From positions 310,001 through 374,000 of the forward strand of contig NW_027191471.1 in the NCBI RefSeq assembly GCF_011745625.1: 64,000 nt of DNA, given 5' to 3'. The notes under the pieces are model-generated. The model had not been told where the DNA came from, made no database searches, and worked only from the letters and a program-made list of their open reading frames with translations. The DNA comes from Cladosporium halotolerans (taxonomy: Eukaryota). Shown here one piece after another: positions 53,565-54,501 of this stretch (within the stretch, counting starts at the first letter, position 1; each line of letters begins with the position of its first letter). A program made the position numbers and the translations under genes.

Positions 53565-53718
53565 GAGATGAAGTCGAGGCGGAGGAAAGGATAAGAGTAA
53601 CGTACCTTGACTTATTTATCACACGCAGGGAATCATCATCACGTAGGCCACTGGATATCTGTCAGTAAGACTTCCGAGAAGAAGATCCATAATCGACAAG
53701 ATAGTGCAAGCTCTGCAT

Positions 53719-53874
53719 TCAGGCTGGAATTTGGTCAGTAATTGTTCTCGTGAACTCGAAGATCTTCGGGACATACCTCATTAAATCAGAATTTTCAGTG
53801 TAATGTACGTTCATAACGGCCTACGGTCGTTTACACCGTAGGCCGTTCAAACAGTGTGAATAGTTGTTCATCAT
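53719..53874 (-). ncRNA. snR51: Box C/D snoRNA snR51, interrupted by nested intron 53724-53776
   Basis: C box 53868-53874. D' guide ATTCACACTG (25S Um2729). Spliced 3' end CTGATTTAATGAG|CCTGA (18S Am100). Terminal stem CTCTGCA/TGCAGAG. Position follows snR41-snR70. Confidence 0.88.
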
Positions 53875-53982
53875 TGCAGAGGCGGGAGGGCGTAGGGGAA
53901 ATTGATGCTAACCTATCGGCCGTTGTCAGTTATTTGCTTCAAGCGAATAGCACTTTCAAGGTTCGACAATGCAGGGCAAAGA

Positions 53983-54109
53983 TCAGTCGACGCTTTCTCA
54001 ACAATCAAGGCCCCGGCCGAACACCCACGAGGGTTTGTACGCCCTCGCTTTTTGCGAATGCCGACCGAAGACTTGGTCTGTCCGCCCGTTGCGTTGTAGG
54101 TCTCATCGT
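53983..54109 (-). ncRNA. snR70: Box C/D snoRNA snR70 (18S Cm1639)
   Basis: C box ACGATGA; ACGGGCGG-A-CAGA(D') is antisense to 18S CCGCCCGU with +5 on C1639; D box CTGA; lies between snR41 and snR51. Confidence 0.8.
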
Positions 54110-54215
54110 AGAAGGGGAAATGGTGTTGAGAGGAGGATAATGTACCTGAGAGGCTTGTTAGTGCTATGTTCGCAGAAACTATGCCAATGATATAATGGTG
54201 GTAAGAGCGTGTATG

Positions 54216-54299
54216 TCAGACAAGGCTGAAACTTAGTTTGACAACATTCAACATGATATATTCGTGTTCGAGGAATGCCATTTGTCACAATATCATCAA
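54216..54299 (-). ncRNA. snR41: Box C/D snoRNA snR41 (18S Gm1126)
   Basis: C box TTGATGA; 14-nt guide AAGTTTCAGCCTTG-T-CTGA antisense to 18S CAAGGCUGAAACUU with +5 on G1126. Confidence 0.88.
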
Positions 54300-54501
54300 T
54301 CGGAGGGGAAGGGTAGGAATGATATGAATCGGAATGTCGTACCTTTTACAACATGAGACGGTGTGATGGGACTGCAGAGTCCCGAGTACGAATGGTATCG
54401 CAGAAAAGAGATCATTGATCATGCATTCTACCTGAGATGTATTGTTAGCCTATGGCCTAATTCGTATGCACTGTTGCATAAAGATGAAAGACCACAAGTG
54501 G

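Follow-up and report, generated by a model that had tools for sequence, protein, structure and literature searches.

The window analysed here, 64,000 nt of a Cladosporium halotolerans contig (NW_027191471.1), carries on its minus strand, from ~54,830 to 53,080, a non-coding snoRNA host gene of a filamentous ascomycete. Two Rfam families match in this gene above their gathering scores, namely Afu_455 (54303–54214, 54.3 bits) and Afu_294 (53296–53147, 47.2 bits), the former containing the guide AGTTTCAGCCTTGTCTGA of Neurospora crassa CD9, a homologue of snR41. The first intron holds a CD17-like unit with two guides, each of which agrees by eye with a printed N. crassa CD17 guide in 16 of 17 letters. 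CD9, CD17 and CD6 form one cluster in N. crassa (Liu 2009, PMC2780460; this paper, like Luo 2013, Canzler 2018, Buchhaupt 2014 and van Nues 2011 below, is cited from excerpts).

The fourth intron-like unit of the host gene is an snR51. It lies in an outer intron (53912–53651; 'intron III' of cluster III) that is defined by sequence and by the joints of a public sequencing run, X4, and whose signals comprise the donor GTTAGC at 53912, the branch motif ACTGAC at 53666–53661 with the branch A at 53662, and the acceptor AG at 53652–53651. The donor adjoins the acceptor AG of the upstream intron (53914–53913) with zero exon in between, as read from the sequence and from an X4 intermediate in which exon 2 is joined to 53912. 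At both 54146/54145 and 53913/53912 an acceptor is directly followed by a donor (AG/GT), which places three snoRNA-bearing introns side by side without exons, and these juxtaposed introns match the 'complex introns' of Luo 2013 (PLoS One, PMC3596301). The middle intron (54145–53913) holds a box C/D-like unit, GATGAGA ... CGACTGATC, for which no Rfam family match was obtained even at E values up to 10; judged from its position, this candidate should be the snR70 homologue of cluster III. The neighbouring intronic snoRNAs, together with the exon-less juxtaposed introns, place the gene in cluster III (snR41–snR70–snR51).

Downstream of the snR51 unit, the next intron (53605–53431) holds a box C/D unit at 53569–53492 with a weak, sub-threshold Rfam match to snR61/Z1/Z11 (21.7 of 45 bits, E 1.3). 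The Afu_294 match covers 150 nt as compared with an 83-position model, and the ~67 extra letters between its halves can fold as a long hairpin-like insert; the snR51 unit likewise has an internal hairpin.

Taken as a whole, the reading developed below, namely that the third intron in the juxtaposed trio of an snR41–snR70–snR51 host gene contains the filamentous-ascomycete orthologue of the box C/D snoRNA snR51 (N. crassa CD6 family), with nested splicing, a second guide and competition during assembly, is in our judgement likely.

Anatomy of a split snR51

Read 5′ to 3′ on the minus strand, the snR51 unit begins with CTCTGCA (53881–53875), the 5′ half of a terminal stem, and the C box ATGATGA (53874–53868), which aligns to the C box of the Rfam snR51 model. 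The D′ guide TATTCACACTG (53862–53852), a T and the D′ box TTGA (53862–53847 in all) follow, with the equivalent of 25S U2729 as the predicted target. Guide and box, TATTCACACTGTTTGA, are identical to the printed N. crassa CD6 sequence 5′-UAUUCACACUGUUUGA, which is paired to 26S-Um2687 in supplement 4 of Liu 2009. The interval 53845–53809 comprises a hairpin in the MFE fold (53845–53817) and a C′-like ATGAAC (53814–53809). Across orthologues the hairpin is kept though its arms differ, and ATGAAC recurs in most of them; we infer it to be the C′ box.

Two guides then adjoin one another. The upstream one, ACACTGAAAAT (53801–53791) plus a T at 53790, lies directly in front of a first CTGA and would be directed at the equivalent of 25S U2724. 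The other starts at that CTGA: the 13-mer CTGATTTAATGAG (53789–53777) is the exon-1 part of an 18S-A100 guide, its first 12 letters being the D-guide of the Rfam snR51 consensus, yet its first four letters (53789–53786) can also be read as a D box, with TTTAATGAG following up to 53777. At this point the snoRNA is interrupted by 53 nt (53776–53724; GTATGT...TACTGAC...CCAG) with the appearance of a spliceosomal intron, the branch A (53735) lying 11 nt before the AG; this is the 'intron B' of Luo 2013. Beyond it (53723–53711) come the last guide letter C (53723), the D box CTGA (53722–53719), an A (53718) and the 3′ stem half TGCAGAG (53717–53711), which pairs perfectly over 7 bp with 53881–53875 and does so in the MFE fold whether the inner intron is present or removed. 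The first D box ends 51 nt from the inner branch A and the second 57 nt from the outer one. Within the window, there is a single copy of the 13-mer CTGATTTAATGAG and of the 16-mer ACACTGAAAATTCTGA, and 100 dinucleotide shuffles contain neither. Every element and coordinate of the original prediction was found at its place on the minus strand.

The C box near the 5′ end and the U2729 D′ guide agree with snR51 as otherwise described (Rfam RF01214; N. crassa CD6; CD_6). The Rfam model aligns over its whole length (1–98) except for the D box, which has no partner because it lies beyond the intron, and on unspliced genomic DNA it stayed below its gathering score (28.2 vs. 44 bits, E = 1). Once 53776–53724 is removed, two letters and then CTGA come after the 12-mer in common with the Rfam consensus, exactly as in that consensus, and the predicted guide falls into the A100 register, the target position facing the fifth letter upstream of box D. 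We take this target to be A100, as in yeast 18S rRNA. In the literature, snR51 guides A100 and U2729 (Buchhaupt 2014).

Nested splicing in RNA and across orthologues

We compared the window with four public runs (X2, X3, X4 and X16) that were picked by share and size, none of them on record as RNA; stretches without cover in X3 and X4 were left out of the interpretation. The GT..AG joints of X4, together with adapter sequences as loose ends, suggest that this run is RNA, whereas X2, X3 and X16 resemble DNA from relatives or from mixtures. The source of X4 is a relative that differs from the window at 7 positions in 239 nt and is not necessarily the same strain.

All four X4 joints have GT..AG ends on the minus strand. 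One of them, 53723>53777 (depth 471.5), is an exact skip of the 53 bases of the inner intron, with CT..AC on the plus strand corresponding to GT..AG on the minus strand. It is contained in a contig of 239 nt (record 25) that covers 53623–53723 and 53777–53914 and thus retains both flanks of the outer intron as well as 28 nt of the next exon. As the outer intron is still attached, the inner intron must have been removed first in these molecules. A second joint, 53650>54343 (depth 1025), removes the three juxtaposed introns at once, and the remaining two correspond to the downstream intron (53430>53606) and the first intron (54428>54610). In addition, an X4 loose end at 54341 matches 53885–53910 in 23 of 26 letters and represents a junction of exon 2 (with its end at 54343) and 53912, as an intermediate of stepwise removal should. 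Contigs of the DNA-like runs X2 (record 11) and X16 (record 5) cross the inner intron without a break. Since no X4 contig covers this intron while one joins across it, unspliced molecules appear to be rare in X4. GT donor, branch, AG acceptor and removal in RNA are therefore all present for the inner intron, the joint itself having been found in X4 only.

In X16, a 3283-nt contig from a more distant relative aligns in short blocks only (53773–53882, pieces near 53973–54004, 54076–54107 and 54215–54235, and from 54502). These blocks appear to be snoRNA bodies, and the one over snR51 ends four letters into the inner intron.

Orthologues were sought in metagenome contigs with a gapped pattern made of the D′ guide core, the A100 guide and GT. 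At least 118 metagenome loci were retrieved, giving 119 sequences with the window, four of which are cut by a contig end. Among the matches listed, GT...AG plus one nucleotide plus C[TC]GA was present at the same place in all 115 evaluable sequences, a figure that says nothing about the share of intron-less snR51 genes, as the pattern itself demands the guide motifs and the GT. With one sequence dropped for a C box (CTGATGA) outside the C-box pattern, the other 114 reduced to 86 unique sequences. Among these listed matches, the inner intron measures 46–68 nt (median 53), a CTRAY branch is found in 83 of 86, and the box after the intron reads N plus CTGA in 85 and CCGA in one. Donor, branch and acceptor are conserved while the interior of the intron is randomised.

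It might be argued that the 53 nt are no intron at all and that they represent an insertion kept in a long mature snoRNA, given that the terminal stem closing box D also forms in the MFE fold with the insert present. However, an X4 contig carries the exact GT..AG deletion, the conserved signals flank a randomised interior, and guide and D box become adjacent only after removal, so that we regard this explanation as extremely improbable.

Signals of the outer intron recur as well. A branch and an acceptor follow downstream in 79 of the 81 loci with enough flank, the branch A lying a median of 59 nt away from the second D box. AG/GT stands directly upstream of snR51 in 35 of these 81 under a strict pattern, outside of which short exons and weaker donors fall.

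The terminal stem differs in sequence between lineages (CTCTGCA/TGCAGAG, GCATGCGTCT/AGACGCATGC, CCATCT/AGATGG or GGTCCATCA/TGATGGAC). Duplex energies were computed with one sequence per cluster (64 clusters) and compared with 10,000 permutations of the partners: the mean was –5.90 kcal/mol with a sequence's own partner vs. –3.17 kcal/mol with permuted partners, and none of the 10,000 permutations reached the observed value. Covariation across the intron shows, at the level of sequence comparison, that the spliced long form is the selected structure. The longest unbroken run of pairs, which had also been tried as a measure of the stem, was discarded as too crude, its control being raised by related loci.

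The central part of the original prediction, an snR51 split by a spliceosomal intron nested in its host intron, was hence borne out by the X4 joint and by the orthologues. Its predicted junction, 53777^53723, is found in X4 with the outer intron still attached, and record 25 displays the proposed order of inner before outer splicing. Sequence, Rfam consensus and stem permutations all agree with its statement that removal of the inner intron yields an A100 guide, a D box and a terminal stem. It had also called for an alignment of orthologous loci, in which intron, N and C[TC]GA recur in 115 of 115 evaluable sequences retrieved with a pattern demanding GT.

It knew of no earlier description, but the nested intron had been reported before. 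Luo 2013 describes a non-snoRNA 'intron B' in intronic snR51, located between the antisense element and box D in all Euascomycetes, and traces it to a single gain in an ancestor. The same excerpts report an intron–intron–intron arrangement without exons and its stepwise removal, with 42 EST products of three kinds only (PMC3596301). The position of the intron, its nesting in intron III, the exon-less arrangement, the extra snoRNA introns and the stepwise 5′-to-3′ removal are shared by the C. halotolerans locus and cluster III of that study, and we see no essential difference between the two. The upstream CTGA, a U2724 guide and alternative forms of the snoRNA are not discussed in these passages of Luo 2013.

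The consensus of Saccharomyces cerevisiae snR51 (RF01214) agrees with the locus in its D′ guide core and in its A100 12-mer, which stands two letters ahead of CUGA; it differs in being intron-less and in having an A-rich spacer where the window has its U2724 guide. Yeast snR51 lies in a polycistron. Spliced snoRNA genes are familiar from U3, which contains spliceosomal introns in yeasts and other fungi and whose mature form arises through splicing of the mRNA type. The genes of U3 are units of their own, however, whereas the snR51 of the window is itself inside another intron and needs two splicing rounds. Sequential splicing within one stretch is also known from recursive or zero-exon splicing and from fungal stwintrons. 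In the window, too, the AG/GT sites at 53913/53912 and 54146/54145 regenerate a donor after each step. The hallmark of a stwintron is an outer intron with one of its splice signals split by the inner intron. We rejected this classification for the present case, as the outer signals (53912, 53666–53661 and 53652–53651) are intact and far from 53776–53724, and the inner intron interrupts the snoRNA cargo instead.

A probable second guide before the first CTGA

The 12 letters before the first CTGA, ACACTGAAAATT, are invariant in 41 of the 86 unique orthologues listed, which represent 25 clusters by intron similarity. Right beside them, the next 18 columns are only 34–63% conserved, and the introns of these loci have a pairwise identity (median 0.61) equal to background. 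In the other 45 (39 clusters) a variable A-rich spacer takes the place of the 12-mer, as in the Rfam snR51 consensus, one of them having a single change.

The same block is known from other snoRNAs. ACACTGAAAATT-CTGA forms the 3′ end of the Rfam snR67 consensus, which ends in the same ACACUGAAAAUUCUGA; in S. cerevisiae, where snR67 (RF01177) ends in the 12-mer plus CUGA seen here at 53801–53786, the U2724 guide lies in a separate snoRNA. The second guide also has the 11-mer and the register of the printed D guide of N. crassa CD49 for 26S-Um2682. As a whole, the snR51 unit does not belong to the Rfam snR67 family (19.7 of 55 bits). The two guides of the window have six letters, ACACTG, in common, and their targets consequently overlap at a distance of five letters, just as the CD6 D′ target Um2687 lies five positions from the CD49 target Um2682 in N. 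crassa.

As originally predicted, then, the upstream CTGA possesses its own U2724 guide, with the 12-mer plus CUGA of the Rfam snR67 consensus and in the register of CD49. This guide is probably functional: invariance of all 12 letters points to a real methylation guide, and such a guide would need the first CTGA as its box D, which implies that the latter may serve as D box in some fraction of molecules. Three predicted targets are thereby encoded in one locus, i.e. U2729 via D′, U2724 via the first CTGA and A100 via the spliced D box. The basis of these assignments is published work and the presence of identical guides in other fungi.

The U2724 target of snR51 has likewise been published. 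According to excerpts of Canzler 2018 (PMC5824354), snR51/CD_6 has 25S-2724 as a conserved target of its D box in Onygenales and in a part of the Dothideomycetes; in Sordariales this target falls to snR54/CD_49, and snR67 retains it in Saccharomycotina only. Luo 2013 is not among the references of Canzler 2018. The first CTGA, which that study reads as box D, is the same element as in the window, and N. crassa CD6 (Liu 2009) has the C box and the D′ guide and box of the window snR51. In the excerpted annotations of both papers, however, the snoRNA ends at or just after the first CTGA (N. crassa CD6 as an 'exon-encoded' RNA), and the intron, the A100 guide and the second D box are left out. Two published annotations of the same gene are thus in conflict: in one, the first CTGA marks the end of the snoRNA and the guide is for U2724; in the other, box D lies beyond the intron and the guide is for A100.

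Nested intron and U2724 D-box target have each been published already, in Luo 2013 and in Canzler 2018, and the locus described here is a further instance. The original prediction, which knew of no earlier description, had been right to the extent that our literature search, covering sources other than subscription journals, found no paper combining the nested intron with the U2724 target into alternative forms.

Long and possible short forms of the snoRNA

Strong evidence for the second D box comes from the covariation of the terminal stem, and it could be asked whether the long spliced snoRNA is the sole functional product. The 12-mer would then provide extra pairing that aids the U2729 reaction, or be a conserved spacer. 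Extra pairing with pre-rRNA that aids methylation is indeed known for yeast box C/D snoRNAs (van Nues 2011). Yet the 12-mer overlaps the target of the D′ guide by the six letters ACACTG, so that both cannot pair with one rRNA at once, and the overlapping part is as invariant as the rest of the 12 positions. Moreover, the 12-mer plus CUGA is the D guide of the yeast snR67 consensus, in register with the D guide of N. crassa CD49, and excerpts of Canzler 2018 name no other carrier of a 2724 guide in the lineages concerned. A long form acting on its own therefore strikes us as quite unlikely, and we retain the reading in which the U2724 guide is used.

How a molecule ending at the first CTGA might arise was the subject of the most specific part of the original prediction. 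According to this proposal, splicing connects the inner acceptor (53724) straight to the outer donor (53912) or, once earlier steps are complete, to exon 2, yielding a lariat that releases a short snoRNA ending at the first CTGA, while inner-then-outer splicing releases the long form. A conserved U2724 guide would require some short or alternative form, and the two D boxes lie 51 and 57 nt from a branch A. These distances proved correct, but they are not specific, the median from the first CTGA to the inner branch A being 51.5 nt where orthologues carry the U2724 guide and 52 nt where they lack it. Since the spacing is equal where there is no such guide, it reflects the usual size of short introns. 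The joints to be expected of this route, 53723>53912 or 53723>54343, were absent among the 13 joints listed across the runs, in which the dominant mature host junction is 53650>54343, although contigs can drop rare forms. The route would furthermore leave 53723–53651 in the host RNA, where a donor for its removal is lacking, and the 42 EST products in the excerpts of Luo 2013 were of the three kinds noted above. In our estimation, a switch of this kind is very unlikely.

A further possibility is that the short form is a by-product of uncompleted inner splicing, either a 5′ fragment left after the first catalytic step and ending in ...AATGAG, or an unspliced transcript trimmed to the first CTGA. 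The sole cloned cDNA of the family, N. crassa CD6 (Liu 2009, PMC2780460), is in line with this notion: reported as a 76-nt 'exon-encoded' RNA, it starts at the first letter of the C box and ends exactly at CUGAUUUAAUGAG, where the genomic sequence continues with 'gua' (supplement 1 of that paper), and because of this genomic gua its 3′ end coincides with the inner donor site. A weak AAG acceptor is also commoner in loci with the U2724 guide (16/41 vs. 5/45, uncorrected for relatedness). On the other hand, the N. crassa CD6 gene lacks the U2724 guide, so its short clone is not tied to U2724 function, and the clone may stem from a spliced cDNA that was printed no further than its match to the genome. 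Unspliced molecules appear rare in X4, too, where a contig joins across the inner intron and none covers it. We consider the by-product explanation unlikely. As for the 76-nt clone itself, a fragment from the first splicing step, a genuine short form or a spliced clone cut off at the end of its genome match could each account for it.

Loci with and without the 12-mer differ in other respects. Terminal stems are stronger in the former (mean –9.2 vs. –3.7 kcal/mol, uncorrected for relatedness), and this difference, like that in AAG acceptors, may bear on the choice of D box. A putative stem closing the short form, between the 5′ flank and TTTAATGAG..., has a mean energy of –4.7 kcal/mol and is similar in both classes; its 3′ flank is constant, for which reason it cannot covary. 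A C precedes the second D box in 40 of 41 loci with the 12-mer and in 24 of 45 without it (uncorrected for relatedness).

We thus arrive at the following model, in which two mutually exclusive usages of box D would exist and the choice between them would most likely be made by competition during snoRNP assembly and by 3′ trimming. The inner intron, which interrupts the gene two letters before box D, is spliced out while the outer intron is in place. Splicing joins ...AATGAG to C-CTGA and thereby creates a guide in the A100 register of yeast snR51, along with a D box and a 7-bp terminal stem. The outer intron is then removed in a stepwise fashion, after the upstream introns, and presumably the snoRNA is set free when this excised intron is debranched and trimmed. 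Some of the molecules in lineages that carry the 12-mer may instead assemble the C box with the first CTGA, in competition with the stem-closed second CTGA. We favour such a competition over a dedicated splice route, which is less likely because it would leave 53723–53651 in the host RNA, because it is absent among the joints listed and because the spacing is equal without the guide.

Put in its boldest form, the model would have one snR51 gene of the 12-mer lineages give rise to two mutually exclusive snoRNPs with the C box and the U2729 guide in common: with the first CTGA as box D, the snoRNP would methylate U2724, and in the spliced form it would methylate 18S A100, so that the efficiency or timing of nested splicing would set the ratio of two modifications on different subunits. 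This we put forward tentatively, as a possibility that is rather doubtful at present.

In any case, the locus adds a further example to a curiosity known from the literature, namely a snoRNA that depends on two splicing rounds, one nested in the other. That a single gene should use box D in two ways is plausible; the isoform switch is an unproven extension, the specific splice route of which is unlikely. In yeast, Am100 is sub-stoichiometric and limited by the level of snR51 (Buchhaupt 2014). If both forms are made, the same four letters would act either as a protein-binding box or as guide sequence, and splicing kinetics could tune two rRNA methylations.
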